64,000 nucleotides of DNA from positions 1,280,001-1,344,000 of the forward strand of contig CAWBOS010000010.1 of NCBI GenBank assembly GCA_963790475.1, in the 5' to 3' direction. This document shows positions 1 to 64,000 of the stretch, piece after piece. Within the stretch, counting starts at the first letter, position 1; every line of letters starts with the position of its first letter. The position numbers and the translations under genes are program-made. Origin of the DNA: an uncultured delta proteobacterium. GTDB taxonomy: Bacteria; Desulfobacterota; RBG-13-43-22. Below the pieces are notes generated by a model. It saw only the letters and a list, made by a program, of their open reading frames with translations, did not search any database and was not told the origin of the DNA.

Positions 1-116
1 CGGCGGAGTTGTTTTTCTACCTTGGATATGATCAGTCCTATCTCTTCCCCTTTGTCCGTAACGAACACAACGATCGCCTTCTTATGGTCAATCCATAACC
101 CCACTTTTGTTCTCAT
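1..116 (-). CDS. Partial CDS (5' end; runs off the window), MRTKVGLWIDHKKAIVV..., resembles small eRF1-like/host-attachment family proteins
   Basis: Manual translation; ATG at 116-114 with AAGGAGA RBS; the 'GLWIDH.KA' N-terminus is recalled from that family. Not in the ORF track. Confidence 0.55.
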   Translation of the reverse strand, partial: MRTKVGLWIDHKKAIVVFVTDKGEEIGLIISKVEKQLR

Positions 117-266
117 CGATATCTCCTTTGTTAACTAGTCCACCTGAAAGTCAATTGATATTGCTTATCTCCCAGGCGTTTTAATATAACATATCCAATT
201 TAAATCATTATAAGTCTTATCGAGATCTATTTTCAATAGTTTATTATCTTAAAATCGAGCCGGACT

Positions 267-905
267 CTAATGACAGTCGTCACAGACCTCCCCGCGTAAG
301 CTTTCAAAACCCTCCCGGGTGATGATCGGCACCATGATCAGCGCTGCCACCGGATCGGCCCACCACCAACCCAAAAGGGCATTGAGCGCGAGCCCGCCAA
401 GAAGAATGGCCGAAAGATAAGCGCAAAGGTCAGTCTGACGCGAGTCGGCCTTCATGGCCCGGCTGTCCAAGCTGGTAGCCGACCGGCGTTTTGCCCGAGC
501 CAGGGTAGGCATGAGGATAAGTGAAATGACGGATAAACCGATACCGACAAGGCTGACCTGTGGGGACTCATAGTATAGGATGGACTTTGAGGCATCGAAT
601 GCAACATAAGCCGCCAGGATCAGGAAACTGATCCCTACCAACTTAAGGGCGGTCCGCTCGCGGCTCTCGTCGTGGACAGGAGAAAATAGCCGCCAAAGAA
701 GTATCGAACCGGAAATACACTCGATGAGCGAATCTACCCCGAAACCCACCAGGGCGATGCTGCCGGCAAACCACCCGGCACCAACGGCCACGCCAGCCTC
801 CACCAGGTTCCAGCCGACGGTAAAATACTCAAGCTTTCGGCCCTGTCGCAAATGCCCCAAACGCTCACTAGAATGACAATCAGAACAATCAATGGCATCC
901 TTCAT
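267..905 (-). CDS. Cation efflux (CDF-like) transmembrane protein
   Basis: About 6 hydrophobic segments; 'ALVGFGVDSLIE' and 'GWWWADPVAAL' motifs; Cys/His-rich termini. Confidence 0.8.
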   Translation of the reverse strand: MKDAIDCSDCHSSERLGHLRQGRKLEYFTVGWNLVEAGVAVGAGWFAGSIALVGFGVDSLIECISGSILLWRLFSPVHDESRERTALKLVGISFLILAAYVAFDASKSILYYESPQVSLVGIGLSVISLILMPTLARAKRRSATSLDSRAMKADSRQTDLCAYLSAILLGGLALNALLGWWWADPVAALIMVPIITREGFESLRGEVCDDCH

Positions 906-47300: not shown

Positions 47301-47680
47301 AGATAGCTCTTGTTTCAGCCAAGGTGATGAACCATGAGAAAGATATCGATTTAGAGCTTTTACCCGTCCATATGTCCCATAACAAAATTAAGAGATTTGA
47401 TAGCTTCTTTAGGAAACGTTTAAGCGAGATTTTTATAAACATTGATGGCGATCATTGGTCGGACGCTGAAAATTGGCTTAAGCAGGCCATTGAAATTGAC
47501 AAGAACAACGGGGTTATTTCTGAGTTGGGCCTGGATTATGTCCTTTACGCTGAATTATCCAGGCATAAAGGAGATCGTTCAAAGGCCAAAGAGCTTCTCG
47601 GAAAGGCCATAGAACTTTTTAAAGAATGCGAGGCCGACGGCTGGGAGAAGAAATATGAGAAGGAGATGGCCGAGATGTGA
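44315..47680 (+). CDS. Double zinc ribbon - class III nucleotide cyclase - AAA_16 STAND ATPase - TPR protein (copy 1, intact)
   Basis: Four CxxC; FCDLEGST, EFRGDG, RIGIHTG, GDTVNLAARME; FVGR, SEAGMGKS, IEDLHWID, EGVPFFVEE, FKHAL; TPR-like C-terminus. Confidence 0.92.
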   Translation: MRCPACGHENLDGAKFCNECGAKLELACPRCGKVNPPGSKFCCECGQPLSAPQESHPPKSLPEKWPQPYPFPLPKELSEKILAQKGRIEGERRQVTVMFCDLEGSTALTEKLGDERAFSLIDEIFDILTQQVHRYEGTVQEFRGDGIMALFGAPIALENAAQRAIRSALAIHQEVTKFGHQIQEGTRGTGIHMRIGIHTGPVVLGTIGSDLRLEFQVIGDTVNLAARMESLAEPGSTYVTNDTFKLTEGLFRFEGLGEKLVKGKETPVRVYRVIAPSSHSTRFDVSAEQGLTPFVGRLRERELLLDAFERARDGRGQAVSIVSEAGMGKSRLLYEFRKAVLNEDITFLEGKCLSFSRGVAYQPIADILKSNFDIREDDWDPAIKNKVKQGLQTIKMGEGPALPYLLELLSAKDSGIEKIQLSPEGKKDRTMDTLKKIILKGSEMRPLVIAIEDLHWIDKTSEDLLKYLLGSIAGARILFILTYRPEFIPTWGPRSYHNQLLLNRLSNRESLLMAQHILDTRQLESALEEVILEKTEGVPFFVEEFIKSLKDLDIIEKKNQTYRITKELQTVRIPSTIQDIIMARVDALPEGAKEVLQVGSLIEREFAYKLIKAVMHLPEEELLRRLSILKDAELLYERGLFPDSTFIFKHALTREVIYGTLLEGKKKEIHGEIGWAIEELYSDNIDEYCGLLAEHYRANENYLKASINYQTAARKPARAVSFTNAVSLAEKGLICLEKLPRTDEVGRKIVDARTTLGLYFIQLQHFDTAKKIIDPVVEPALKHDYRRRLSQIYTVLGIHSHLIAEDYPQAIEYLEKAIKMAEEMDDFVSLIFAQHYLGHVFADNCLFDQGLYYIGKALKIVETFNVPWSIAMHKACIAYTIYCSQGKIGLAYETGREALLLAEESGDILSKAEAYTNHGACCFFKGFLEEAEENLLKGIDFSAKAQLFGQGFVAHLSLGMVHSRNGNYGKAINYFGKAIEFEKFGTLTPSYFNLAQIALVSAKVMNHEKDIDLELLPVHMSHNKIKRFDSFFRKRLSEIFINIDGDHWSDAENWLKQAIEIDKNNGVISELGLDYVLYAELSRHKGDRSKAKELLGKAIELFKECEADGWEKKYEKEMAEM

Positions 47681-47803
47681 TTACCTGTTTATGAGGTTAT
47701 AGGGGTTAATGCAAAAATCACACAACTACGTCTACTAAGGGAGCAAAAAAATAAACACCCCTTTCCTAAAGGGGGATAGCGATTGGACATATTTGCATCC
47801 GGA

Positions 47804-47832
47804 TTGACAATTTGGACAACTTAAGATAATCT
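47804..47832 (+). promoter_or_regulatory. Promoter candidate giving a leaderless transcript
   Basis: TTGACA-N17-TAATCT ending 6 nt before the ATG at 47839; no SD sequence. Confidence 0.5.
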
Positions 47833-47838
47833 CCGTCC

Positions 47839-49008
47839 ATGATCAAAAGAATTTTAGAAAAAAAGCTGGTGGCTCTCTCCGGGCAGTTCCCTGTCGTCAC
47901 CCTGACGGGACCACGACAATCGGGAAAGACAACCCTGGTACAGCAGGCATTTCCTGATTGGGAGTATGTCTCCCTGGAGGAGTTGGATAACCGTGAGTTT
48001 GCGGAGCAAGATCCGCGCGGGTTCCTTTCCACTTACTCTCAAAAAGTGTTGATTGATGAGGCCCAAAGGGTACCATCCCTTTTTTCCTATCTTCAAGGAG
48101 TGGTCGACCGGCTCAACCGACCGGGCCAGTACATCTTAACCGGCTCCCAGAATTTTTTGCTCCATGAAAGAATTTCCCAATCCTTAGCCGGCCGCACCGC
48201 CGTCCTGAAACTGCTTCCCCTGAGCCTGGAAGAGCTTCCTAAGGGGAGGACACCCGGCAAGAATTACTACGCCTTCCTTTTCCGGGGGTTTTATCCCCGG
48301 CTGTATGCCCAAACCGTTTCTCCCACCGATTGGTATAGGAGCTATGTTCAGACCTACCTGGAAAGGGATCTCCGCCTGATCAAGAACATCCCCGACTTGG
48401 GGCTGTTCCAAAAATTTGTGCGCCTTTGCGCCGGACGGGTCGGACAAGTGCTGAACCTGAGTTCCCTGGCCCAGGATACCGGCATCAGCCCCAATACCGC
48501 CCGGTCCTGGATCTCTTTATTGGAAAGCAGTTACCTGGTGTTTCTACTTCAGCCCCACTTCCGCAACTTTAACAAGCGCCTCATTAAAATGCCGAAACTC
48601 TATTTTTACGATCCCGGATTAGCCTGCTATCTCCTGGGAATCGAAACCCCGGAGCAGGTCAAAACGCATTTTCTGAAAGGAGCCCTTTTTGAGTCTCTGA
48701 TCATTTCGGAATTGATCAAGTATCGGGTTCATCGCGGCTTGGAAGCCAACTGTTATTATTGGAGGGACAAGGTCGGCCATGAAGTTGACTGCCTCCTTGA
48801 TTTCGGGGAACGGCTGGTCCCCTTGGAAATCAAATCCGGGGAAACCATCACCTCCGGCTTTTTTGAAGGGCTGAATTACTGGAATCGTCTGGCCAAGGCA
48901 GATCCCCGTCATGCCTTTCTGATTTATGCCGGTTCCAAGAAAGAAGAAAGAAGCCAGGGACGGGTTTTGAGCTGGGGTAAGATTCAGGATGTTTTTAATG
49001 TGGTTTAG
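47839..49008 (+). CDS. AAA_14 ATPase with DUF4143 (PD-(D/E)XK-like) C-terminus
   Basis: GPRQSGKT, IDEAQ, LTGSQ, PKLYFYDPGL, GALFES, YYWRD..GHEVD..PLEIKSG. Confidence 0.92.
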   Translation: MIKRILEKKLVALSGQFPVVTLTGPRQSGKTTLVQQAFPDWEYVSLEELDNREFAEQDPRGFLSTYSQKVLIDEAQRVPSLFSYLQGVVDRLNRPGQYILTGSQNFLLHERISQSLAGRTAVLKLLPLSLEELPKGRTPGKNYYAFLFRGFYPRLYAQTVSPTDWYRSYVQTYLERDLRLIKNIPDLGLFQKFVRLCAGRVGQVLNLSSLAQDTGISPNTARSWISLLESSYLVFLLQPHFRNFNKRLIKMPKLYFYDPGLACYLLGIETPEQVKTHFLKGALFESLIISELIKYRVHRGLEANCYYWRDKVGHEVDCLLDFGERLVPLEIKSGETITSGFFEGLNYWNRLAKADPRHAFLIYAGSKKEERSQGRVLSWGKIQDVFNVV

Positions 49009-49025
49009 ACTCATGGAGAAAGTCG

Positions 49026-52000
49026 ATGAAATGTCTGAAATGCCATACGGAGAATCCTGAGACCAAAAAGTTTTGCACGGAGTGTGGAGCAAAGCTTTCA
49101 CTGATTTGCCCTCATTGTAAGGCAGAGGTCCTGCCGACAGAAAAATTTTGTGGTGAGTGCGGGCACCCTTTATCCGTTCCTCCCAAGACAACCCCCAAAC
49201 CACTCCCCTCTATTGATGAAAAGATTGCCAAAATCCAGCATTATCTTCCCAAGGATCTGGCTGACAAAATCTTACTGCAGCGGGAGCGGATCGAGGGGGA
49301 GCGCAAGCAAGTGACGGTGCTGTTCACCGACATGGTGGGCTCCACCTCCATGTCGGAGAAACTCGATCCCGAAGAGTCCTTCGGCCTGATGGAACAGGTT
49401 TATGAGATCCTCATCCGAACGGTCAATGAGTACGGGGGAACGGTGAACGAGCTGACCGGCGACGGGGTCATGGCCCTCTTCGGCGCCCCCATCGCCCTGG
49501 AGGACGCGCCCCAGCGGGCTATCCGGGCCAGCCTGAGCATCCACCGGGAGCTGGTCCAGTTCAACGAAAAGATGCGCCGAGAGAAAGCCGGTCTGCCCTT
49601 GCTGCGGATGCGGGCCGGGATCAACACCGGACCGGTGGTGATGGGCACCCTGGGTAATGACCTGCGGGTCGATTTCAAGGTCGCCGGCGATACGGTCAAT
49701 CTGGCCTCTCGTATGGAAGGCCTGGCCGAGCCCGGCACCACGTATGTTACCGCTGAGACCTTCAAACTCACCGAGGGGTTCTTTCGCTTTGAAGGATTAG
49801 GGAAGAAAGAAATCAAAGGCAAGGCCGAGCCCATCGAGGTCTTTCGGGTCATTGCCCCCAGCAACCGCAGGACCCGCTTTGATGTGAACGCCGAACAGGG
49901 ACTGACCCCATTCATAGGTCGTCAGCGCGAACTCGAACTTTTGCTCGATGTTTACACCCGGGCCAAAAGCGGCCGGGGCCAGGCCATTTCCATCGTGGCC
50001 GACGCCGGCATGGGCAAGAGCCGGCTGCTCTACGAGTTTCGCAAAGCCCTGGCCAATGAGGAGGTGAACTTTCTGGAAGGCAAATGCCTCTCTTACAGCC
50101 GGGGAGTGGCCTATCACCCGGTGATCGACCTGCTGAAAGGGCAGTTTGACCTCCGGGAAAACGACGGCGACTTTGAGGTGCGGGACAAGGTCAAACGAAA
50201 CCTGAAACTCCTGCAAATTGACGAAATCACCACCCTGCCCTATTTTCTTGAGCTTCTTTCGGTCAAAGACAGCGGCCTGGACCGAATTTCTTTAAGCCCG
50301 GAAGGCAAGAGAGACCAGACCCTTCAGGCCCTGACCCGCTTCGTTCTCAAGGGGGCCGAGATCCAGCCTCTGATCCTGGCCGTGGAAGACCTTCACTGGA
50401 TCGACCGGAGCTCCGAAGAGGTCTTGAAAGACCTCCTGGAACACATTGCCGGGGCCAGGGTATTGCTGATCTTCACCTACCGGACCGAGTACGTCCACAC
50501 CTGGGGGTCCCGCTCCTTTCACAGCCAGGTCACCTTAAACCGGCTCTCCAACCGGGAAGCATTGGCCATGGTCTCTCATCTTTTAGCCACGGAAAGCGTG
50601 GCCGAGAACCTTCAGGACCTCATCTTGGAGAAGACCGAAGGGGTTCCCTTCTTTATCGAAGAGTTTTTGAAGTCCCTCAAGGACCTCCAGGTCATCCGCC
50701 GGCAAGACACGGTTTACGCCCTGACCAAAGACCCCAAAGACGTTACCATCCCTTCCACCATCCAGGACGTGATTATGGCCAGGGTCGATGCCCTGCCCGA
50801 AGGGGCTAAAGAGCTCTTGCAGACAGGGTCGGTCATCGAGCGCGAGTTTTCCCATGAACTTATTCAAAAGGTAACCAAACTCTCTGAATCGGACCTCCTG
50901 ACCCATCTCTCGGCCCTTAAGGATGCCGAGCTCCTCTACGAGCGGGGGGTGTACCCGAACTCCACTTACATCTTTAAACATGCCCTGACCCGAGAGGTGG
51001 TTTATGACTCGATCCTGACCAGAAGGCGCAAGGAAATTCATGCCACCGTGGCCGAGGCCATGGAGCAAATTTATCAACCCAACCTTGATGAACACCTGGG
51101 CACCCTTTGCCATCACTTTATGACCGGGGATAACTACGAGAAAGGCGAGACCTACGCCAGGCTGGCCGTTCAAAAGGCGCAGAAGGCCGGCTCATTGCCG
51201 GATGCCATCAATCAATCCAAGAAAAGAATCGCCTGTCTTGAGAAATTGCCTCTGGCCGAAGAGGTTCAAAGAAAAATAATAGACGCCCGGACAATTATGG
51301 CCCTCCGCCTGATTGAACTCAATCATTTTATTGAAGCCAAAGAAGCTATTGACCCGATTATCGACCTTGTCAAAAAGCTGAATTATAAAAAGCGTCTTGG
51401 CCAGGTGATAACCATTATTGGATCATATCAATCTAGTGTGGAAGAAAATTTCCCGGCAGCCTTTCAATCTTTCGAAAAGGCCTTAACTCTTTCGCAGGAA
51501 GCAAATGACATCGTAACTTCAGTTTTTTTAAATTATTGGCATGGAGTAACTTTGGCCAACAACTGCGAATTTGAAAAGGCCACCGGCCTCATGCAAAAGG
51601 CCGTTGACATAAATGTGGCAGCCAAAAATTTATGGGGGATCGCATCCACTCAAGCCACTTTTGCCTATTTATGTTTTTTCTTGTCCGGAAGGATAGATTT
51701 GGGATTCCGGACCTCGGCCGAAGCCGTTCAAATAGCTGAAGAGAGCGGAGATGGTTATTCCAAAGGTGTAGCTTATGCTTGCCACGGCGTTTCCTGCTTT
51801 GGGCGGGGATTATTCGAAGAAGCAGAAAAGTATTTTTTAAAAGGCATCGCCTTTTGTGAAAGGGTCAATCAACCGACTTTTAACTTGCTCGAACATTGTT
51901 ATTTGGGTGAGATCAATTTTGAAAAAGGAAATTTTTTAAAATCAGAAGAATGGTATAGGAAGCATACCAGATTGTGAAAGAGGGCCGCATATTTCCTTCT

Positions 52001-52396
52001 TTCTTGGGTTGGGGAAAATCAAGATTGCTGAAGACAAAGAGTATGATCGATCCAAAGAATATCGACCTGGAATCTCTTTATGTCTATTCTAAAAATAATA
52101 AAATCAAAGCCTACCAAGGTTTGATTTCCATTGATATCGGGGCCATTCTAATGAATCTGGATGGATGTCTGCCCGAAGCCGAAATTTGGATTCAAAAGGC
52201 CATTGAGGAAGACCAAAGAAACGGCACGCGGTTTTTTTTAGGAAGAGACTACGCCCTTTACGCCGAATGGTTCAAACGAAAGGGCGATCGATCCCAGACC
52301 CGGGAAAACCTGGGGAGAGCCATAGAAATTTTAAAAGAGTGCGGCGCCGATGGCTGGGTGGAAAAATATGAGAAGGAGCTAACCGCACTGCAATAG
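49026..52396 (+). pseudogene. Zinc ribbon - cyclase - STAND ATPase - TPR (copy 2), frameshift near 51957 in the distal TPR region
   Basis: FTDMVGST, ELTGDG, GDTVNLASRME, ADAGMGKS, VEDLHWID; 'tgg tat ag gaa gca tac' lacks one base; ORF 51974-52396 supplies the conserved ..CGADGWVEKYEKEL tail. Confidence 0.88.
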
Positions 52397-52428
52397 ATGA
52401 ACTGAATTCTGACTACCGGAGGTAGAAA

Positions 52429-55400
52429 ATGGAATGTCCTAAATGCCAGGCTGAGAATCCGGAAACTAAAAAGTTTTGCAGCCAGTGCGGGACAAAACTT
52501 TTAAAGGTCTGCCCTCAGTGTGGCGCTGAAATTCTTCCAAACGATAGATTTTGCGGCGAGTGCGGACAGGCCTTGTCTGCACACCGGGAATCACACCCGC
52601 CAAAAAGCTTTCCGGAGAAATGGCCCCAGCCCTACCCCTTTCCCTTGCCCAAAGAATTATCCGAGAAGATCCTGGCCCAGAAGGGCCGGATCGAAGGGGA
52701 GCGCCGGCAGGTCACGGTCATGTTCTGCGACCTGGAGGGCTCCACCGCCCTGACCGAGAAGCTTGGGGACGAAAGGGCCTTTTCACTCATCGATGAAATC
52801 TTCGATATCTTAACCCAGCAGGTCCATAAGTTTGAGGGGACGGTCCAGGAGTTCCGTGGAGACGGTATTATGGCCCTTTTCGGCGCCCCCATTGCCCTGG
52901 GAAATGCCGCCCAGCGGGCTATTCGCTCGGCCCTGGCCATCCACCAGGAAGTGACCAAATTCAGCCACCAGGTTCAAGAAGGAGTCCGGGGAGCGGGGAT
53001 TCGCATGCGGATCGGCATTCATACGGGCCCGGTCGTCCTGGGCACCATCGGCAGCGACCTGCGTCTTGAATTCCAGGTCATCGGCGATACGGTCAATCTC
53101 GCGGCCCGGATGGAAAGCCTGGCCGAGCCGGGAAGCACCTATGTGACCAGCGATACCTTTAAGCTCACCGAGGGGTTCTTTCGCTTTGAAGGCCTGGGGG
53201 AAAAGGTGGTCAAAGGGAAAGGGACGCCGATCCGTGTTTATCGGGTGATCGCTCCCAGCAGCCAAAGTACGCGGTTCGATGTCAGCGCCGAGCAGGGCCT
53301 CACCCCATTCGTGGGCCGCCAGCGGGAGCTGGAACTCCTTCTCGACGGCTATGAACGAGCCAAGTCCGGCAAAGGCCAGGCCTTTTCCCTCATATCGGAG
53401 GCCGGGGTGGGGAAATCCAGGCTGCTTTATGAATTCCGGAAGGCAGTGGGCAACGAAGAGATCACCTTTCTGGAGGGCCGCTGTCTTTCTTACGGCAGGG
53501 ATGTCCCCTACCATCCCTTCATCAGCGTCCTGAAAGCCAACTTTGAGATTAAGGAAGGGGAAATCGATTCAGAAATCAGGCGGAAAGTCGAGCGAGGGCT
53601 GGACCTGATCGGATTGGATCGAGGCTCCAGCCTGCCCTATTTCCTGGAGCTATTATCCGTCAAGGACAGCGGCATCGAACAAATCTCCCTCAGCCCCGAG
53701 GGGAAAAAGGACCGGCTTCAGGAGGCCTTCCGGCGGATCATCCTCAAGGGTTCCCAGGTACGTCCCCTGGTTATTGCCATTGAGGACTTGCAACGGATGG
53801 ACAAAAGCTCCGAGGAGGCCTTGAAGTATATATCGGAAAGCATCCCGGGATCGAGGATTCTTTCCATCTTCACCTACCGTCCGGAATTCATTCCTTCCTG
53901 GGGAGGCAAGTCCTTCCACAGCCAGTTGACCTTGCAGCGTCTTTCCAACCGGGAGACCCTGGATATGGCCGCCCATCTCCTGGGCACTAAAGAAATAGAA
54001 AGGTCCCTGGAGGAGCTGCTTTTAGAGAAGACCGAAGGGATTCCCTTTTTCCTGGAGGAATTTATCCATTCCTTGAAGGACCTGAAAATCATCGAGCGAA
54101 GAGGCCTGGCCTTTGGCTTATCAAAAAGTATCCTGGAAAAAATGGCCGTCCCCACCACCATCCAGGAAGTGATCCTGGCCAGGGTGGACCCCTTGCCCGC
54201 CAGGGCCAAAGAAGTGCTTCAAGCCGGGTCGGTTATCGAGCGGGAGTTCGACTTCCGGCTGATCAAACAAGCCACCGGATTCCCGGAACCGGAGTTGCTT
54301 TCCAACCTTTCCCTTTTAAAGGACGCCGAGCTTTTATATGAACGGGGCATCTATCCCCAGTCGAGCTACATCTTCAAACATGCCCTGCCCCGCGAGGTGG
54401 TTTATGATTCCATCTTGTCCGACCGTAAGAAGAGACTCCACGAAGAAATCGGCCGGGCCTTGGAAACCCTATACCGGGACCGCTTAGGGGAATATTACGG
54501 GGTCCTTTCCGAGCACTTCATAAAAAGCGGCCGTTATGAAAAAGGGGGAGAATATGCCAAATGGGCGGCCAAAAAAGCCGAGAAAACCGTTTCCCTAAAC
54601 GATGCCATTTCCTACATGAAATATCCTGCCTGGAAAAACTGCCCCCATCCGAAGAGAATGAAAAAGAAGAGATCGACGCCCGAACCATCATGGGGACTTA
54701 CATTTTACAAATGAATTATCCGGTCCGGGCCAAAGAGGCCATTGACCCGATCATTGATCGGGCCTTGAAGCTTAACTATAAACGCCGGCTCCCGCTGATA
54801 TATGGCATATTAGGGCAACATTCGCTTGAGGTTGAAGAAGACTTCCCCGCGACCTTCCATCATCTTGAACAGGCCTTAAAGATTTCCGAAGAGACCCATG
54901 ATATTCTTTCCCTGTTTGTCACCAATTATAGCCTGGGTTTCTCGCTGCTGTGCGATTGTGCTTTTGAAAAGGCCTCTCATCACTTTGAAAAAGGCCTGGA
55001 AATAAACCAAGCGGCCAATAATCTTTGGGGCATATCAGCTATGAAATCTTTTTTGACCCTTATCCAGCTTTATCGAGGCCAAATCGATCTTGGCCACCAG
55101 CTCAGTGCGGAGGCCCTTCATTTGGCCGAAGATAGCGGCGATATCTACTCCAAAGGGATTGCCTATACCGCCCATGGTGTTTCTTGTTATTGCAAAGGAT
55201 TTCTTGCTGAGGCGGAAAACCACTTATTAAAAGGAAATGATTTTTGCGAAAGGATCCATTTTTTCGCCTGGAACCTCGTGGCCCAATATCATTTAGGTGA
55301 GCTGTATCACTTTCTCGGAAAATATGAAAAGGCCGTCGGCTGTTTTGAAAAAGGGGTTTCTTGTTTGGAAGAGGCTCGTTTCGGTCCCTCAAGAAAAAAT

Positions 55401-55790
55401 ATAAATAGAATGGGAATTGCCAGGGCCAGGGTTTTGATCGATCGAGGAGATATTAATTTAGGACTCCTGTATGGGTATATCCGGGAGAATAAGCTGAAAG
55501 AGCTCGACGGTCGAATGCGAAGATTCATGGCTGAGATTTTATTGCATCTCGATGATGATCACATGGACGAGGCCGAGTCCTGGATCAATCAGGCTATAGA
55601 AGCCGATCAGCGGAATCAAATGAGGTGGTGTTTGGCCTGGGATTATCTTTCCCATTCCGACCTCTTGAAGAAAAAAGGCGACCGGTTTAAGGCCACGGAG
55701 ATCCTGGGCCGGGCCATAGAAACTTTTAAAAACTGCGGCGCTGATGGGTGGGTGCAAGAGACTGAACAGAAGTTGGCCCTTATTTCATGA
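52429..55790 (+). pseudogene. Zinc ribbon - cyclase - STAND ATPase - TPR (copy 3), frameshift near 54620
   Basis: ORF 52429-54714 plus ORF 54561-55790; alignment to copy 2 (AINQSKKRIACLEKL vs AISYM-aa-ISCLEKL) implies a 7-nt deletion. Confidence 0.88.
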
Positions 55791-55849
55791 CAGTGAATTC
55801 CTAATAATCAATTCTTGATGAGACAGGTTACGAAAGCGAAATGGCTGAA

Positions 55850-56194
55850 CTAATCCGACTGCTGTCTGGCCTCATGGTCGAGCGCTTCAATCATCCAGGT
55901 GTTGATGCTCTTTCCAGAGGCGTCGGCCAAGGCGATAATCCGCTCATGCAAATCCGGAGAAATTCGCAAATTGAACCGCCCGGTGAACTTCCGACGCGGA
56001 TTCACCCCGTCCTCTACGCACATTTTCAGGAAAACCTTGAGGGATTTCCTTCCCTCTTTGCGGAGCCCTTCGACCGAAGAGGCATAAAAGTCAGCACCCC
56101 CATTCAGGCCGACAAACTCCCCCCGAAACATACCGATATCAGGGTCATACTTGATGACCGCTTTGTATCCTTCAATTTCCATAACACTGATCAT
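55850..56194 (-). CDS. hicB: HicB family antitoxin
   Basis: GYKAVIKYDPD..FRGEFVGLNGGADFYA, GRFNLRISPDLH..GKSINTW. Confidence 0.92.
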   Translation of the reverse strand: MISVMEIEGYKAVIKYDPDIGMFRGEFVGLNGGADFYASSVEGLRKEGRKSLKVFLKMCVEDGVNPRRKFTGRFNLRISPDLHERIIALADASGKSINTWMIEALDHEARQQSD

Positions 56195-56445
56195 GGCTTC
56201 ACCCCGTGTTGTTCAAACCACTTGCGGATGCTTTCTACGCAGCCCTTATCCGTATCCGGAGATGGATGCGGACGATGGAACACCCGACGCTCGCCGAAAA
56301 GCCGAACTCCGACGCGTGAGCCTTCATGCTCGGTCATTTCGGCCCCCAATTCACGAAATAACGCCAGGATGTCAGACCATTTAATGCCTCCGCTCGTGGG
56401 ACGACTGAAAATTATTTCCAACGTTGAATGGTGCCTGCGTTTCAT
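56191..56445 (-). CDS. hicA: HicA family toxin
   Basis: IKWSDI.ALF..LGA....EGSRV....VFHRPHP; ATGA overlap with hicB; likely start MKRRHH at 56445. Confidence 0.92.
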   Translation of the reverse strand: MKRRHHSTLEIIFSRPTSGGIKWSDILALFRELGAEMTEHEGSRVGVRLFGERRVFHRPHPSPDTDKGCVESIRKWFEQHGVKP

Positions 56446-56453
56446 GAAAATAT

Positions 56454-56482
56454 ATGGTGCCAATTATTAGTGCCATTGTCAA
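56454..56482 (-). promoter_or_regulatory. hicAB promoter/operator candidate
   Basis: Minus strand TTGACA-N17-CACCAT with TGGCAC repeated twice; ends 8 nt before the ATG. Confidence 0.45.
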
Positions 56483-56517
56483 TAGAAATTGTTTCGAGGA
56501 ATAAATAGGATAACGCC

Positions 56518-56758
56518 TTTAGCGTTTGAAAAGAGGTTTTTTATTCACCGCGAAGACACAAAGGACGCAAAGAGAATCATTTTTATTCAATCCCGTGAGA
56601 GGCGGGATTGAATGAACCAGCTCTGGCCTCCGGCCAAAAAATTACCTTGAGGGTAGCGAAGGTTATTCATTGCCGGCCCCTCACCGGCAATCAATAAAAA
56701 ATTCTCTTCATGGCGCCCTCCGCGTCTGCGGTGGAAACATATATTTCAAAAAGCTAAA
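56518..56758. repeat. Structured twin-hairpin repeat, copy A
   Basis: TTCACCGC..GCGGTGGAA ends; hairpins with loops TGAGAGG (56596-56602) and CCCCTCA (56677-56683). Confidence 0.7.
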
Positions 56759-56891
56759 CTGAGACTAAATATGATTATAAACATAAAACACGGAAGCAAA
56801 TGGATTTCCAAAGATTTATCACGATATCCCCCCGGAAGACGGCTAGGCCCCGTCCGGAAGTTACCCGGAAGAGGTAGTCCCTAACCGGGCA

Positions 56892-57000
56892 GTTGACTTC
56901 GAAAAATTCGCCAAAGCCCAATTTCGTCATTCCGGGCATGACCCGGAATCCAGGAATTTAATTTTTTCCTGGACCCCGGCTTTCGCCGGGGAGACGGTTA
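56892..57000. repeat. MITE/REP-like element (GTCATTCCGG..CCGGAATCCAG..CTGGACCCCGGCTTTCGCCGGGG)
   Basis: Same core as 27971-28104 and 62170-62310. Confidence 0.7.
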
Positions 57001-57025
57001 AAGGGGGTCTTTTGGTCTAAGAAAG

Positions 57026-57045
57026 ATCGACAAAACTTTGTCGAT
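57026..57045. promoter_or_regulatory. Palindrome upstream of the kinase-STAND gene (possible operator)
   Basis: ATCGACAAA-AC-TTTGTCGAT. Confidence 0.35.
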
Positions 57046-57090
57046 GTTCAGGCACTAAGCGCCTAACACCTTCGGTGAGGAGGAGTTAAA

Positions 57091-60000
57091 ATGAATTGTC
57101 CGATGTGCGGGCTTGATAATCGAGAAGGGGTAAAGTTCTGCGAGGAATGCGGGGCCAAGATGGAGCTGACGTGTCCCGGTTGCGGGTCAATAATCCCATC
57201 AGGCAAAAAATTCTGTGGCGGGTGCGGCCGGTCCCTGATCTCGACTCAACCCCCAACTCCGGTTGCATCCGCACCACCTTCCTCTCCCCCACCCGCTTCC
57301 TTCGCCAATGGCCGCTACGCGGTCAAGAAGTTTCTGGGAGAAGGGGGCAAGAAGAAGGTTTATCTGGTCCATGACAGTTTGCTGGACCGGGATGTGGCCT
57401 TTGCCCTGATTAAGACTGAGAAGCTGGATGCCGCCAGCCGGCAGCGCATCAGCCGGGAGGCCCAGGCCATGGGAAGATTGGGCGACCATCCCAACATCGT
57501 CGGAATCTATGATATGGGGGAAGAAAAAGGCCAGCCCTATGTAGTCCTGCCCCTCCTGCCGGGGGGAGATGTAGAAGGTTTGATGGAGAAGGCCCCGGAG
57601 CGGCGGCTGCCCATCGAAAGATCCATCGATATTGCCAAGGCCGTCTGCCGGGGCCTGGAATATGCCCACAGCAAAGGGGTGATTCACCGGGACATCAAGC
57701 CGGGTAATGTCTGGCTGAACGCCGATGGTATCGCCCAGATCGGCGACTTCGGACTGGCCCTGGCCCTCGACCTTTCCCGCCTTACGAATGAAGGGATGAT
57801 GGTCGGTACCTATTATTATATGCCTCCGGAACAGGCCATGGGCGGTGAGGTTTCTCCCCAGGCCGACTTGTATTCCTTAGGGGCTATGCTCTACGAGATG
57901 GTTGCCGGCCGGCCGCCCTTCACCGGTGATGACACAGTGGCCATTATCGGCCAGCATATCAATACCCCGCCCGTTTCTCCTTCCTGGCACCGTCCCGAAC
58001 TGTCCCCTGCTTTGTCTGCTCTGATCATGCGGCTTTTGGAAAAAGATCCCCACCATCGCCCTGCCTCAGCCGGAGAAGTCCTCAAGGCCCTGGAGGTCAT
58101 TGAGACCGGCAATGCGGAAAAAGTCACCTCCAGGGAAGAAGCAGTCCTGACTGAGAACCCCCTATATAGGCGGGTATTCGTCGGCCGGGAGCCGGAACTC
58201 CGGCAACTGCAATCGGCCTTTGATCTGGCCGCCTCCGGCCAGGGCTCTCTGATGATGGTGGTGGGGGAACCGGGTATCGGCAAGACATCACTCAGCGAAC
58301 AATTGGCCACCTATGCCACCCTTCGAGGCGGCCAGGCCTTAGTGGGACACTGCTACGAAGAAGGCTCCCTGTCTCTGCCTTATCTCGCTTTTGTGGAGGC
58401 CTTGCGCTCTTATGCCGGAACTCGAGACATCAGTGAGCTTCAAAAAGAACTGGGTCCGTGGGCGGCCGATGTGGCCCGAATTGTCTCCGAGGTCCGGGAG
58501 AGGCTGAGCATTCCACCCCGGCTCAAGGGTGACCCCGAGGAAGAAAGGTACCGGCTGATGCAGGCCGTCTCCGACTTCCTGGGAAATGTCGCAGCAAACA
58601 AGCCCCTGGTGATCGTGCTGGAAGACCTGCACTGCGCCGACCGCGGCACATTAGAAATGCTGGGCCATGTGGCCCGCAATCTGGGTAATAAAAGACTTCT
58701 CCTGGTGGGCACCTACCGGGATATCGAGGTGGACCGGACTCATCCCCTCTCCTCTTCCCTGGCCGACTTAAGACGTCTGCCCACTTTCAGCCGCGTACTG
58801 CTTAGAGGACTCAATGCCGATGAGGTACGACGGATGCTGGCCGGAATTGCCGGGCAGGAGGTGCCCTGGGGTCTGGCCCAGGTTGTGCACCGCCAGACCG
58901 AGGGCAATCCCCTTTTTGTCCAGGAAGTGATTCGTTATTTAGCCGAAGAAGGGGTCTTCGTCCGGGACAAAGGACGCTGGCAGCCGGCCAAAGATACGCC
59001 GGTGGAAATGCGCATACCCGACGGGTTGAGGGATGTAATCGGCAAGCGTCTTTCATCCCTGAGCGAGACCTGCAACCGGCTGCTCTCCACCGCCGCAGTC
59101 ATCGGCCGGGACTTTCGTTTGGAGGTCCTCCAGAGGGTAGCCGGACTGTCCGATGAGGACCTGTTCAAGGCCCTGGAGGAGGCCAGAAAAGCAGCCGTGA
59201 TCGAAGAACGGACCGGCACCGGGGCTGTGGTCAACTACCGATTTGCCCACGCCTTCTTCCGCCAGACCCTCTATGAAGAGATCATCGCCCCCCGGCGCAT
59301 CCGCCTCCACCAGCAGGTGGCCAGGGCACTGGAGGAGGTCTACAAAAACCGGCTGGCAGAGCATGCTGCGGAGTTAGCCGAGCACTTCTCCTATTCATCC
59401 GATTCAGAGGACCTTAAAAAAGCAATCAGTTATTCTGAAATGGCGGCCGAGAGGGCGACCTCAGTCTTTGACTACGGGGAAGCGGTCAGACTTCTGGAGA
59501 AAGCGCTTCAGGTGCAGGAAGTTTTAGATCCCGAGGACAAAATCAGAATGTGTGATCTTTTACTCTCCCTGGGGGATACCTTGACCATGGCCGGTAATCC
59601 CAGGAGGGCACTCGATCACGAGTTTGAAAAGGCCTTTCATTTAGCGGAAGATGCAGGCAGCAGGCATCGTGCCGCCAAGGCAGCGGTGCTGTCCATGACT
59701 GCTTTGAGGTTTTATGGCTGGGGTTTCGCTGAGAGTTCGCCCGAAATGGTGAAATGGGTTGAACGCGCCGATCGATATGCTAAGCCGGGTTCGGCGGAAC
59801 GGGTAAAAGCCGATATCGGCTTGGGAACGGTTAAAATGTACAGTCAGTATAACGAGCCCTTTGAATCCTGGGTATCATACTTTGACCGGGCACTCGAATT
59901 ATCCCGTGAATTAAAAGATCCCGGGACTTTCTGGGAAACTGCAGGGGATTATCTGTTTTGGGTTTGGTCTCCTGATCATGCCGAAAAGCAATTAGAACTG

Positions 60001-60912
60001 GCTGAAGAAATATTGCTGAAATCACATGCAGGAGTAAATATCAGAGGACTTGTCTATGCTATGGGATATGCCGCCAATGTTTTTTTGGCCCGGGCCCATT
60101 ATGAAAAAATGAAAGAGATAATAAATATTATACAAAAAATTACAGACCAATCCAATCAAATACACAATAAAATAGGTTTTCTGGTTTGGGAAATTATTTT
60201 GAAACTATTGGATGGCGAGTTATCGCCAGCCGTTCAAAAATGCCATGAGCTGGCCGAATTGGGGGAAAAGGAGTCTTTAGTAGAGTTTGTTGATGTCGCC
60301 ATGATTTCGTTTCTGCCCAGGCCTCTCCAATACTTAGGGATAAGCAGTGATGTTTTAAATAAGTCCAGGTCTCGCATCCAGGATCCCTCTATACATGGAA
60401 CAATCTTCTCATTCCTGCATAATAATCAACTTGATAAAGCCCTGGAGCTTATTGACTGGTTGATTGAATTAAGAATGAAAAGAGGAGCCTCTCAAGATGA
60501 AACGTTGAGTTATCCCGATGTGTTTCTACTTGAAGCCTGTATACGATTAAACCATACCAAGGCCATCCAATTTTTATATGACCGCCTCAAGACCTGCCCG
60601 CATGTCACCAGCGCTGTCTGGTCAACGACATGCACGGCCCTTCCCCTGGGAAGGGCCGCGGAATTACTGGGCCATCCGGATGAAGCACTATCTCATTACA
60701 GAGACGCCTTGAAAGTGGCTATTTCACTCAGATATCGGCCGGAAATTGCCATTGCCCGCTATGAGATTGCCCGGCTGTTACTGGAAAAATATCCTGAAGA
60801 GAAAAAAACAGCCTTGGAGCATCTGGATTTTGCTATCGGCGAATTCCGGGAGATGAAAATGCAGCCATTCCTGGAAAGAGCACTGAGGCACAAGGAGATC
60901 CTTAAGGCGTAG
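57091..60912 (+). CDS. Double zinc ribbon - Ser/Thr kinase - AAA_16 STAND ATPase - TPR-like protein
   Basis: Four CxxC; GEGGKKKVY, HPNIV, HRDIKPGN, DFGLA, GTYYYMPPEQ, DLYSLG; FVGR, GEPGIGKT, LEDLH, EGNPLFV, FAHAF; GAGGAGG RBS. Confidence 0.92.
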   Translation: MNCPMCGLDNREGVKFCEECGAKMELTCPGCGSIIPSGKKFCGGCGRSLISTQPPTPVASAPPSSPPPASFANGRYAVKKFLGEGGKKKVYLVHDSLLDRDVAFALIKTEKLDAASRQRISREAQAMGRLGDHPNIVGIYDMGEEKGQPYVVLPLLPGGDVEGLMEKAPERRLPIERSIDIAKAVCRGLEYAHSKGVIHRDIKPGNVWLNADGIAQIGDFGLALALDLSRLTNEGMMVGTYYYMPPEQAMGGEVSPQADLYSLGAMLYEMVAGRPPFTGDDTVAIIGQHINTPPVSPSWHRPELSPALSALIMRLLEKDPHHRPASAGEVLKALEVIETGNAEKVTSREEAVLTENPLYRRVFVGREPELRQLQSAFDLAASGQGSLMMVVGEPGIGKTSLSEQLATYATLRGGQALVGHCYEEGSLSLPYLAFVEALRSYAGTRDISELQKELGPWAADVARIVSEVRERLSIPPRLKGDPEEERYRLMQAVSDFLGNVAANKPLVIVLEDLHCADRGTLEMLGHVARNLGNKRLLLVGTYRDIEVDRTHPLSSSLADLRRLPTFSRVLLRGLNADEVRRMLAGIAGQEVPWGLAQVVHRQTEGNPLFVQEVIRYLAEEGVFVRDKGRWQPAKDTPVEMRIPDGLRDVIGKRLSSLSETCNRLLSTAAVIGRDFRLEVLQRVAGLSDEDLFKALEEARKAAVIEERTGTGAVVNYRFAHAFFRQTLYEEIIAPRRIRLHQQVARALEEVYKNRLAEHAAELAEHFSYSSDSEDLKKAISYSEMAAERATSVFDYGEAVRLLEKALQVQEVLDPEDKIRMCDLLLSLGDTLTMAGNPRRALDHEFEKAFHLAEDAGSRHRAAKAAVLSMTALRFYGWGFAESSPEMVKWVERADRYAKPGSAERVKADIGLGTVKMYSQYNEPFESWVSYFDRALELSRELKDPGTFWETAGDYLFWVWSPDHAEKQLELAEEILLKSHAGVNIRGLVYAMGYAANVFLARAHYEKMKEIINIIQKITDQSNQIHNKIGFLVWEIILKLLDGELSPAVQKCHELAELGEKESLVEFVDVAMISFLPRPLQYLGISSDVLNKSRSRIQDPSIHGTIFSFLHNNQLDKALELIDWLIELRMKRGASQDETLSYPDVFLLEACIRLNHTKAIQFLYDRLKTCPHVTSAVWSTTCTALPLGRAAELLGHPDEALSHYRDALKVAISLRYRPEIAIARYEIARLLLEKYPEEKKTALEHLDFAIGEFREMKMQPFLERALRHKEILKA

Positions 60913-63205: not shown

Positions 63206-63243
63206 CCATAATTGCTTAACGAATGATCGGAGAAAACTCGGAT

Positions 63244-64000
63244 ATGCCTGCTGATGAAAAAAATATTCCGGAGGGAACCATCACTCTTTTTATCATTGAT
63301 TTGGTGGGTTCCACCGGTCTCAACCAATCCTTAGGGGATGAGGTTTACGCCACTGTAGAGCGCGGAATTAAAAAAATAGCTTTTGAGCTGATATCCACGA
63401 ACAACGGCATCGTCTTTAAGGATACCGGTGATGGTCTGATGGCGGCCTTTCGGTCGGCCCGCAAGGCCGTGGGGTGTGCCAGGGAGTTCCAGCGGTCGGT
63501 CGCCCAGCGCAATCGAACCCAGGGCGGGGCACCTATTAGATTGAGGATCGGTCTTCACACCGGAGAGGTTCTCGCCGAGAATGGCGACTTCCGGGGCGAG
63601 ACCGTGATCATCACCAAAAGAATCGAGGAGGTGACCCCTCCCGGAGCGATATATGCTTCCGAGACGGTCCATGGTGTTTTGGGCACCACACGCACAGAGT
63701 TAGAGGATCGGGGCGAATTCGAGTTGAAAGGAATCACTGCGCCCTGGCGTCTTTACGAGGTACCATGGGTCGAGATGGAAGCCGGCAGGGTCCTTCCTCA
63801 CAATGAGCCGACGCCCTTTGTGGGGCGATCGATGGAATTCTCACACCTGCTCGAATTGGTCGAGCGAACCAAGAAGTCATCAGGTAGCATGGTTTTTATC
63901 GGAGGCGAGGCCGGGATCGGAAAGACCAGGCTGACCGAGGAGACTGCCAGGGAAGCAAGGCGATTAGATCTGCTGGTTCTGACCGGTCATTGTTTGGAGA
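63244..64000 (+). CDS. Partial class III cyclase - AAA_16 STAND ATPase (no zinc ribbon; runs off the window)
   Basis: Manual translation, open to the end: MPADEKNIPEGTITLFIIDLVGST..FKDTGDGLMAAF..RIGLHTGE..GETVIITKRIE..ELKGI..PFVGR..GEAGIGKT; absent from the ORF track. Confidence 0.9.
   Translation, partial: MPADEKNIPEGTITLFIIDLVGSTGLNQSLGDEVYATVERGIKKIAFELISTNNGIVFKDTGDGLMAAFRSARKAVGCAREFQRSVAQRNRTQGGAPIRLRIGLHTGEVLAENGDFRGETVIITKRIEEVTPPGAIYASETVHGVLGTTRTELEDRGEFELKGITAPWRLYEVPWVEMEAGRVLPHNEPTPFVGRSMEFSHLLELVERTKKSSGSMVFIGGEAGIGKTRLTEETAREARRLDLLVLTGHCLE

Follow-up and report, generated by a model that had tools for sequence, protein, structure and literature searches.

The Ser/Thr kinase described here, encoded in the window (the whole 64,000-nucleotide stretch of DNA that was analysed), has no lysine in strand β3, where canonical kinases carry the VAIK lysine, and has one instead at the third glycine of the glycine-rich loop (G-loop). 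This arrangement is strictly conserved and has a single origin within the bacterial kinases, and the domain that carries it has the protein kinase fold and lies between a zinc ribbon and a STAND ATPase. It is probably a working Ser/Thr enzyme whose lysine has been relocated in the manner of WNK, and through it a STAND sensor would deliver its output. We also lean, by a little, towards the broader view that a PknB-like bacterial clade reached the WNK solution independently, with the lysine moved from β3 to the third G-loop glycine, Met127, Trp208 and Gly218 remodelled, and the enzymes active.

The open reading frame at 57091-60912 is intact across 1273 codons. The gene and its modules are as follows.

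57091..60912, + strand: whole gene, 1273 aa, with a double zinc ribbon, a Ser/Thr kinase, an AAA_16 STAND ATPase and a TPR-like sensor (ORF list, translation, Pfam)
57097..57228, + strand: double zinc ribbon, residues 3-46 (Pfam PF12773 DZR, E 2.8e-10)
57316..58080, + strand: Hanks-type protein kinase domain, residues 76-330 (Pfam PF00069, E 1.8e-47)
58177..58707, + strand: AAA_16 STAND-type P-loop ATPase, residues 363-539, with Walker A motif GEPGIGKT (Pfam PF13191, E 2.9e-29)
59314..60909, + strand: TPR-like C-terminal region, residues 742-1273, the presumed sensor (Pfam TPR_12 and TPR_MalT matches)

The kinase domain scored 162.4 bits against the Hanks-type profile PF00069, for which the Pfam cut-off is 31.7. 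With an N-terminal effector domain, a Walker A ATPase and then TPR repeats, the protein has the layout of an AAA_16-type STAND protein (Pfam and sequence). Among 31 full-length members, the kinase was the best-conserved module (mean identity to the query of 75%), followed by AAA_16 (66%) and the TPR region, which was the least conserved (33%). The first-pass annotation had regarded such a kinase as unusual for a STAND effector. We found no support for this, because fusions of a kinase with a COG3899/AAA_16-type ATPase are already described in the text of two sources (PMC12599244 section 10; bioRxiv 10.1101/2025.01.12.632604), namely CP1 (kinase + COG3899 ATPase) and PknK, and because the present family by itself accounts for no fewer than 75 clusters at 50% identity. 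Like our protein, CP1 and PknK are soluble multidomain proteins in which a STAND-like predicted ATPase follows the kinase. In contrast, CP1 members come with GAF, PAS or FhlA and show a heterogeneous loss of Lys, HRD and DFG, and the text descriptions of CP1 and PknK, by which alone they were compared, mention no conserved G-loop lysine.

The stretch at 57334-57414 (+) encodes LGEGGKKKVYLVHDSLLDRDVAFALIK, which corresponds to residues 82-108. PknB of M. tuberculosis aligned without a gap to residues 70-109 (phmmer against PDB chains). In this HMMER alignment, Lys40 of PknB (VAVK) pairs with Ala105 (VAFA), and the PknB G-loop GFGGMS pairs with GEGGKK, which places Lys88 at the third-glycine position (PknB G-loop position 23). 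The residues that matter for catalysis are located as follows.

57337..57357, + strand: glycine-rich loop GEGGKKK, residues 83-89 (alignment to the PknB G-loop)
57352-57354, + strand: Lys88, the proposed relocated catalytic lysine (third-glycine position by PknB alignment; 196/196 family domains)
57403..57405, + strand: Ala105, in the place of the canonical β3 (VAIK) lysine (aligned to PknB Lys40)
57412..57414, + strand: Lys108 of 'ALIK', a rival candidate lysine, 3 residues past the β3-Lys position (PknB alignment)
57457..57471, + strand: αC Glu123, which pairs with the catalytic Lys in a salt bridge, and family-specific Met127 (family alignment)
57685..57714, + strand: catalytic loop HRDIKPGN (199-206) and family-specific Trp208, which falls on PknB Met145 (family alignment)
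57742..57753, + strand: family-specific Gly218, which falls on PknB Met155, then DFG (219-221) (family alignment)
57784..57786, + strand: activation-loop Thr232 (HMMER alignment to PknB Thr171)

The αC Glu, HRD Asp, catalytic-loop Asn and DFG Asp expected of a Hanks-type kinase are thus all present (Glu123, Asp201, Asn206 and Asp219), and the β3 VAIK lysine is the one such residue that is absent. The exact translation and the ungapped PknB alignment bear out the first-pass reading that the β3 lysine was lost (VAFA), that a lysine occupies the third G-loop glycine and that HRDIKPGN and DFG are intact.

A total of 343 kinase domains were aligned; 196 had Lys88 without a β3 lysine, 132 had the β3 lysine without Lys88, and none had both. 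We define the family as those 196 domains with Lys88 and a residue other than lysine at position 105, and their identity to the query ranges from 45 to 100%. Lys88 is invariant (196/196), and position 105 is nearly always small and never Lys (A in 185, S in 7, G in 2, Y in 1 and C in 1). The αC Glu is kept in 195/196, and the HRD-Asp, the Asn and the DFG-Asp each in 194/196, the remaining two being fragments. Ten residues never vary across 74 sequences (H134, R135, D136, N141, D154, G174, T175, P181, E182 and D194 in model numbering), and Thr232 (T167 in the model) is kept in at least 90% of these family sequences. The Lys88 clade makes up one side of a single tree branch, beside canonical bacterial kinases (SH-aLRT 99), which indicates a single event followed by strict conservation. 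The relocated-lysine arrangement is therefore a clade trait with a single origin inside the bacterial kinases. The proposal that the loop lysine covaries with loss of the β3 lysine holds only in part: the split of 196 against 132 is clean, but it reflects one evolutionary event and so cannot count statistically as repeated co-evolution.

Five of 280 positions (88, 105, 127, 208 and 218) reach 90% conservation or more in the family but stay below 15% in canonical relatives. Through the PknB alignment, they correspond to G55, K72, L95, L173 and T183 in PKA numbering. On this placement, all five are nucleotide-pocket or spine positions and line the ATP pocket. Met127 was found in 77/78 family rows, where canonical relatives have A, I, V or L; Trp208 in 72/78, where canonical rows have L or M; and Gly218 in 76/78, where canonical rows have T, L, A or M.

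An AF2 model of the kinase domain (pLDDT 90.2) was superposed on PknB, as the first-pass annotation had suggested, and the fold was the same (VIA Z 34.0; 254 residues superposed at an rmsd of 1.5 Å, model 10..278 on chain 10..282). PknB was also the best PDB sequence match (E 3.9e-51), and by sequence, Foldseek and VIA the nearest solved structures were of the PknB/PknA type, at 33-36% identity. Among the 2718 PDB sequence matches, the best 60 comprised PknB, StkP, PknE, PknA, Nek7, PAK, PLK, Aurora and others, with no WNK among them. WNK was also absent from the 8 matches to a 37-aa N-lobe segment, from the Foldseek matches through rank 50 and from the best 50 VIA entries of 999 chains aligned. 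PknB-type kinases are thus closer than WNK; these fold lists are silent on active-site geometry. With PknB and PknA rather than WNK as the nearest structures, the likeness to WNK appears to be convergent. A WNK relative by descent is ruled out by the position of the clade beside canonical bacterial kinases and by the absence of WNK from the best 60 PDB sequence matches. Our kinase shares with PknB and PknA the fold, the RD motif and an activation-loop threonine, Thr232, aligned to PknB Thr171, which we take to be an autophosphorylation site. Unlike our kinase, PknB retains the VAVK lysine and has a Ser where Lys88 sits. PknB sits in the membrane as a receptor kinase, carries PASTA domains and has no STAND fusion.

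WNK kinases are characterized by a DLG motif and by autoinhibitory and CCT-like domains. In contrast, the motif is DFG in our kinase, whose fusion partners are a zinc ribbon, a STAND ATPase and TPR repeats; Pfam reported only DZR, Pkinase, AAA_16 and TPR families, and no WNK-type accessory domain, in the 1273-aa protein. The best sequence and structure matches also differ, being bacterial (PknB, PknA, StkP and Stk1). What the two have in common is a small residue in place of the β3 Lys, a lysine at the G-loop position of PKA G55, and a retained αC Glu and HRD. WNK1 also resembles our kinase in having a Gly directly before its DLG motif. Kannan et al. 2007 (PMC1821047) place the WNK lysine (K233) at PKA G55, the third G-loop glycine; given this equivalence, the PknB alignment shows that our kinase has the WNK combination of no β3 Lys and a Lys at the third G-loop glycine. 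The G-loop lysine of WNK is needed for catalysis (PMC1821047; PMC10211241). In 2007, WNK was viewed as the sole functional ePK family without a β3 lysine (PMC1821047), and POMK joined it later (PMC10211241). In POMK (SGK196), the absent VAIK lysine is likewise functionally replaced from β2 (PMC10211241); however, the HRD and DFG counterparts of POMK are non-canonical and its substrate is a sugar, whereas the Hanks motifs of our kinase are otherwise canonical. In CAK-chloro too, the charge has moved from β3 to β2, with Met at position 72 and Arg at 55, but these are small-molecule kinases without the αC Glu that is kept here (PMC1821047).

Based on these observations, we propose that the gene product would function as a cytoplasmic signalling protein of four modules: double zinc ribbon, Ser/Thr kinase, STAND (AAA_16) ATPase and TPR-like sensor. 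The ATP-anchoring role would have shifted from β3 (now Ala105) to Lys88 on the neighbouring strand β2, as in eukaryotic WNK. By homology, Lys88 and Ala105 are predicted to be cross-strand neighbours that face the nucleotide, so that a small residue at 105 would let the side chain of Lys88 extend to αC Glu123 and the ATP phosphates. Three further pocket residues, Met127, Trp208 and Gly218, appear to have been altered alongside these two. The domain would be catalytically active and controlled through phosphorylation of Thr232. A signal sensed by the TPR region would lead to nucleotide-dependent oligomerisation, as in other STAND switches, and oligomerisation would allow the kinase domains to meet, with trans-autophosphorylation and output as the result.

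Alternatively, the domain could be a true pseudokinase that binds ATP via its basic KKK loop without phosphotransfer and acts as a nucleotide-dependent switch or scaffold heading the STAND protein. We consider this unlikely, though it deserves serious attention. Absence of the VAIK lysine is the standard criterion for a pseudokinase in the text of bioRxiv 10.1101/2025.01.12.632604, and our kinase falls under that sequence definition through this lysine alone, which gives it a label and is no evidence of inactivity. Section 13 of PMC12599244 describes bacterial families with basic β2 residues and predicted non-canonical ATP binding, such as DLHK. The surroundings of the gene are also compatible with an inactive domain: no PP2C phosphatase gene, FHA gene or other adjoining substrate candidate was found among 27 of 50 ORFs selected in the window, those from position 28,229 to its end, or among 23 ORFs in a 43-kb stretch of a related genome. 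On the other hand, the HRD-Asp, the HRDxK Lys, the Asn, the DFG-Asp, Thr232 and the GT/PPE motifs, which serve only phosphotransfer and its regulation, vary little or not at all over the 45-100% identity of the family. The bacterial pseudokinase families described in the preprint text mostly lose HRD and/or DFG as well (bioRxiv 10.1101/2025.01.12.632604), and the kinase here is the best-conserved module of its protein. The conservation pattern therefore favours an active kinase over a pseudokinase.

It is more doubtful still that the kinase is active through a different lysine, either Lys108, by a register shift or bulge in β3, or Lys87 or Lys89 at the loop tip, with Lys88 kept for some other reason. 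All three positions are largely basic in the family: position 108 is K or R in 188/196 domains against 36/125 aligned canonical domains, position 87 in 181/196 and position 89 in 180/196. However, position 108 (K in 178, R in 10, N in 6, S in 1 and Q in 1) becomes non-basic in 8/196 domains with all other catalytic residues kept, and S, T, Q, M, F, Y, I, V, N and H also occur at positions 87 and 89, whereas Lys88 never changes. There is no indel from the G-loop to β3 relative to PknB, and β3 of the AF2 model (model residues 35-42) ends one residue before Lys108, which is thus the first residue outside the strand. Three positions further along a strand, the side chain would be expected on the opposite face. 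These results agree with the first-pass view that the Lys of 'ALIK', which it had named as the residue that could overturn its reading, does not occupy the canonical β3 position. The enrichment of Lys108 in the family over canonical domains counts against the relocation model.

An artefact, be it a mistake in sequencing or assembly or a gene copy that was inactivated recently, has a negligible likelihood; a pair of neighbouring cyclase-STAND genes in the window seem to be split and the genome bin has an estimated contamination of 9.68%, but the ORF is intact, the same residues occur in 120/120 close homologues listed, from many independent contigs, and in 75/150 representatives of 50%-identity clusters, and the Lys88 codon switches synonymously between AAG and AAA at ten related loci (AAA in 4/10), so that chance or an assembly artefact is ruled out by this recurrence and these synonymous changes.

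A WNK-like relocated lysine in an active kinase thus remains our preferred reading. No bacterial WNK-like kinase is described in the literature searched, which includes the bacterial STK atlas as text, its figures and supplements being places where the clade might be shown, and the Lys88 clade is apparently a large, undescribed bacterial family. If our reading is correct, this would be the first bacterial Hanks-type case of a relocation for which WNK and POMK are the other known examples. The clade would then represent an independent natural replicate of the WNK relocation with the remaining catalytic residues intact, and would reveal which compensating pocket changes recur. Since the catalytic lysine would lie on the mobile G-loop, the conformation of the loop could gate kinase activity under the STAND oligomerisation switch. 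It would also be a warning that sequence-based 'pseudokinase' calls in bacterial kinomes can mislabel active enzymes. We propose the kinase domain as a soluble, easily expressed test case for catalysis by a G-loop lysine.

The neighbouring adenylate/guanylate cyclases have the same chassis of zinc ribbon, AAA_16 and TPR repeats (Pfam architecture), with a class III cyclase as output instead of a kinase. The zinc ribbon of our protein shares 45% identity over 87 aa with the N-terminus of a neighbouring cyclase protein, and its STAND and TPR part shares 24% identity over 613 aa with a neighbouring cyclase protein (E 1e-38). PADLOC assigned PycC-type matches to the neighbouring cyclases and generic kinase-domain matches (PD-T4-6, mad6 and MkoA) to the kinase; these matches were not taken as evidence of a defence role. 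Part of the gene is also present in three DNA runs from one study.

Our analyses have shown that the kinase gene (57091-60912, + strand) is an intact ORF of 1273 codons. Searches against Pfam identified the following domains in its product:

Residues 3-46, double zinc ribbon
Residues 76-330, protein kinase domain (E 1.8e-47)
Residues 363-539, AAA_16 STAND-type ATPase (E 2.9e-29)
Towards the C-terminus, TPR / MalT-like repeats

The active-site segment in question is LGEGGKKKVYLVHDSLLDRDVAFALIK (residues 82-108, translated from window 57334-57414, + strand). When the protein was compared with all PDB chains by phmmer, the top match was M. tuberculosis PknB (E 3.9e-51), to which residues 70-109 align with zero gaps. 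Ala105 of VAFA is paired with Lys40 of PknB's VAVK, and the PknB loop GFGGMS is aligned with GEGGKK, which places Lys88 at the third-glycine position of GxGxxG. HRDIKPGN, DFG and the alphaC Glu (Glu123) are retained. This alignment bears out the motif description in the first-pass annotation, namely a beta3 Lys replaced by Ala and a third loop Gly replaced by Lys, with HRDIKPGN and DFG intact. The other two Hanks kinases in the window's 6.34-Mb genome are canonical (GQGAMG...VALK and GKGAMG...VAIK).

A register in which the 'ALIK' lysine, Lys108, occupies the canonical beta3 position, raised by the same annotation as an objection to its own proposal, is disfavored by the gapless PknB alignment and by an AlphaFold2 model in which beta3 ends before Lys108. 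The model, built from a 74-row alignment, folds as a kinase with high confidence (mean pLDDT 90.2, pTM 0.88), low values being confined to the activation loop (model residues 158-173; model numbering is the protein residue minus 65). DSSP assigned beta2 to model residues 23-30, Lys88 being the first, and alphaC to 49-64; beta3 spans 35-42, so that Ala105 (40) lies inside the strand and Lys108 (43) comes directly after it. PknB and PknA were the top-ranked structural matches (Foldseek and VIA-align; TMq 0.82-0.89, Z 34.0), and VIA-align superposed model residues 10..278 on chain residues 10..282 with an rmsd of 1.5 A over 254 residues. The equal numbering at both ends, together with the gapless sequence alignment, argues against a register shift placing Lys108 in the beta3-Lys site. 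Given an antiparallel hairpin whose length is unchanged, positions 88 and 105 would be direct cross-strand neighbours, on a face that probably also bears the adenine-contacting pair Val90 and Ala103; position 108, three residues further, would face the opposite side.

The Lys88/non-Lys105 arrangement is the trait of a family and not a peculiarity of a single gene. Across 5.8 billion proteins, a word-indexed search gave 6623 matches among 8000 scored candidates, and all of the best 120 of these matches (kinase domain 76-100% identical to the query) possess it. HMMER, run exhaustively over 1.84 billion cluster representatives, gave 1,214,476 kinase matches; the best 150 comprised 75 with Lys88/non-Lys105, 9 N-terminally truncated fragments and 66 that were canonical or other. 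Kinase domains from 272 proteins were aligned to the query by phmmer, giving 385 domain rows, 343 of which have both key columns filled:

Table. Residues at positions 88 and 105 in 343 kinase domains
Lys88, 105 not Lys: 196 (the query counted twice, as entries P0003 and P0004)
Gly88, Lys105: 90
Other residue at 88, Lys105: 42
Neither Lys: 15
Lys88, Lys105: 0

Of the 15 domains with neither lysine, at least three have an ordinary VAIK that the alignment has shifted, and most of the others are degenerate repeats in proteins with several kinase domains. Furthest from the query among the family members seen (45-50% identity) are the tandem kinase domains of a 3024-aa metagenomic protein, P0126 (residues 604-875 and 896-1176), both Lys88/Ala105, with the loops GEGAYKRVY and GEGAFKRVY.

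A maximum-likelihood tree was built from 78 family and 45 canonical domains. For the family, rows were drawn from the 190 domains that had 255 or more aligned residues (every one below 72% identity, eight closer ones picked at random, and the query), and the canonical rows were the 45 closest to the query among 108. A single branch separates the Lys88 group from the canonical domains (SH-aLRT 99), and the same split was recovered with five trait columns (described below) removed. The covariation of Lys88 with loss of the beta3 Lys that the first-pass annotation proposed as a check is therefore a perfect association, but one that reflects a single evolutionary event rather than repeated co-evolution. 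The arrangement arose once and was then strictly maintained; with one event only, the functional evidence rests on conservation and not on a covariation statistic.

Conservation was counted over the 196 family domains, which are 45-100% identical to the query:

Table. Residue counts in 196 family domains
Position 87: K151 R30 S7 T3 Q2 M1 F1 Y1
Position 88: K196
Position 89: K138 R42 T5 I3 V3 Q2 N1 H1 S1
Position 105: A185 S7 G2 Y1 C1
Position 108 ('ALIK' Lys): K178 R10 N6 S1 Q1
AlphaC Glu (Glu123): E195 Q1
HRD-Asp, catalytic-loop Asn, DFG-Asp: 194 each, the remaining 2 being fragments

Lys88 is encoded by AAA at four of ten related genomic loci and by AAG at the others. Columns that never vary in an alignment of 74 family sequences include G83, G85, K88, H199, R200, D201, N206 and D219, as well as the GT and PE motifs of the P+1 and APE region. 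Conservation of Thr232 in this alignment is 90% or higher, and phmmer pairs it with PknB Thr171, an activating autophosphorylation site. Trait positions were defined as those at least 90% conserved in the family with the same residue in less than 15% of relatives (78 family versus 45 canonical rows). Just five of 280 positions qualify:

Table. Trait positions (family; canonical; PknB; presumed PKA equivalent)
88: Lys; Gly/Ala; Ser23; G55
105: Ala/Ser; Lys; Lys40; K72
127: Met; Ala/Ile/Val/Leu; Ala63; L95, regulatory spine
208: Trp; Leu/Met; Met145; L173, catalytic spine, beneath adenine
218: Gly; Thr/Leu/Ala/Met; Met155; T183, the residue preceding DFG

All five line the ATP site or its framing spines, a pattern characteristic of a nucleotide pocket that has been rebuilt yet still works, and not of decay. 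As judged from sequence, the arrangement is strictly conserved and of single origin across a large clade, with coordinated remodelling of the ATP pocket.

Taken together, these analyses make it reasonably probable that the domain is a working Ser/Thr kinase whose catalytic lysine has been relocated by convergence, and that it provides the output of a STAND signalling protein. Activity is favored because residues needed only for phosphotransfer or its control are invariant or nearly so across the family (HRD-Asp, HRDxK Lys, Asn, DFG-Asp, RD arginine, activation-loop Thr and P+1/APE motifs), and because the salt-bridge partner Glu123 is retained in 195/196 domains. It is also favored because the kinase is the best-conserved module, with a mean identity to the query among 31 full-length members of 75%, versus 66% for AAA_16, 66% for residues 540-740, 33% for the TPR-like part and 30% for the zinc ribbon. 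There is direct precedent as well: WNK requires its G-loop Lys for catalysis (PMC1821047) and POMK likewise relies on a beta2 Lys (PMC10211241). The main rival is that the domain is an ATP-binding pseudokinase switch. By sequence definition it is classed as a pseudokinase, and position 108 (window 57412-57414) is K/R in 188/196 family domains versus 36/125 canonical domains, an enrichment that the relocated-lysine model leaves unexplained and that counts against it. On the side of activity, the bacterial pseudokinase families described to date mostly also lack HRD and/or DFG, according to a 2025 atlas of bacterial Ser/Thr kinases (bioRxiv 10.1101/2025.01.12.632604).

The likeness to WNK is one of lysine placement and is convergent. 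The nearest relatives of the family kinases are bacterial and they are not WNK members; they have DFG whereas WNK has DLG, and the accessory regions of WNK are absent. In the portions consulted, the atlas and its companion review (PMC12599244) catalogue seven pseudokinase families (ActPs1-3, GLW, CP1, DYD and DLHK) and cite WNK solely as a eukaryotic analogy, and a conserved G-loop Lys with intact HRD and DFG was not found in that text. No description of a bacterial WNK-like kinase turned up in the literature texts searched; the Lys88 clade may nevertheless have been catalogued before. Kinase-ATPase fusions are already known, namely CP1 with COG3899 and PknK (PMC12599244 section 10; bioRxiv 10.1101/2025.01.12.632604). 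Both resemble our protein in joining a kinase to an ATPase, so the first-pass view that it is unusual as a STAND effector was unwarranted.

At E <= 1e-70 the family is present in 5/301 sampled same-phylum genomes, counting the window's own, including 3/8 other same-genus genomes and a single genome from a different family. Two of the five (G105 and G031) each encode seven Lys88-type kinase-STAND copies, and in G105 five copies of identical architecture lie within ~37 kb (G105:C23:257558-293426, loci L013-L015). One copy in this cluster appears split into a kinase-AAA_16 part (L013:5303-7252) and a TPR part (L013:7274-9190). The conserved effector and ATPase, the divergent C-terminal repeats and the expanded copy number in particular lineages are consistent with a STAND sensor. 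By analogy with general STAND behaviour, we predict that ligand-induced oligomerisation would bring the kinase domains together, the kinase acting as the output. No substrate or phosphatase gene adjoins the kinase gene among 27 window ORFs from 28,229 on or among 23 ORFs in a 43-kb stretch of one related genome, which weighs against the active-kinase reading.

The window also carries a run of paralogous adenylate/guanylate cyclase STAND genes (44315-55790 and 63223-63999):

44315-47680, zinc ribbon, class III cyclase, AAA_16 and TPR, upstream of the kinase gene
49026-51977, zinc ribbon, class III cyclase, AAA_16 and TPR, upstream of the kinase gene
52429-54714 with 54561-55790, zinc ribbon, class III cyclase, AAA_16 and TPR, upstream of the kinase gene
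63223-63999 (start 63223), cyclase and AAA_16 without zinc ribbon

The kinase protein and the product of 44315-47680 share 45% identity over 87 aa in the zinc ribbon and 24% over 613 aa in the STAND-TPR body (E 1e-38). Because these parts are shared, kinase and cyclase are alternative outputs on one chassis, and the locus brings together STAND sensors that carry either of two output domains. Two of the cyclase genes look split: 49026-51977 is overlapped by a 140-aa ORF (51974-52396) resembling a paralogue's C-terminal end, and 52429-54714 overlaps the ORF bearing its TPR part (54561-55790). The apparent splits in 49026-52396 and 52429-55790 could be frameshifts, pseudogenes or assembly errors. 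Immediately upstream of the kinase gene (55841-57090) lie a 209-aa ORF without a Pfam match and then ~620 bp devoid of long ORFs. Two of the cyclase-STAND genes are separated by an AAA_14 + DUF4143 ATPase gene (47839-49008), and such a gene recurs between two kinase-STAND genes in a related genome (L014:17694-18863).
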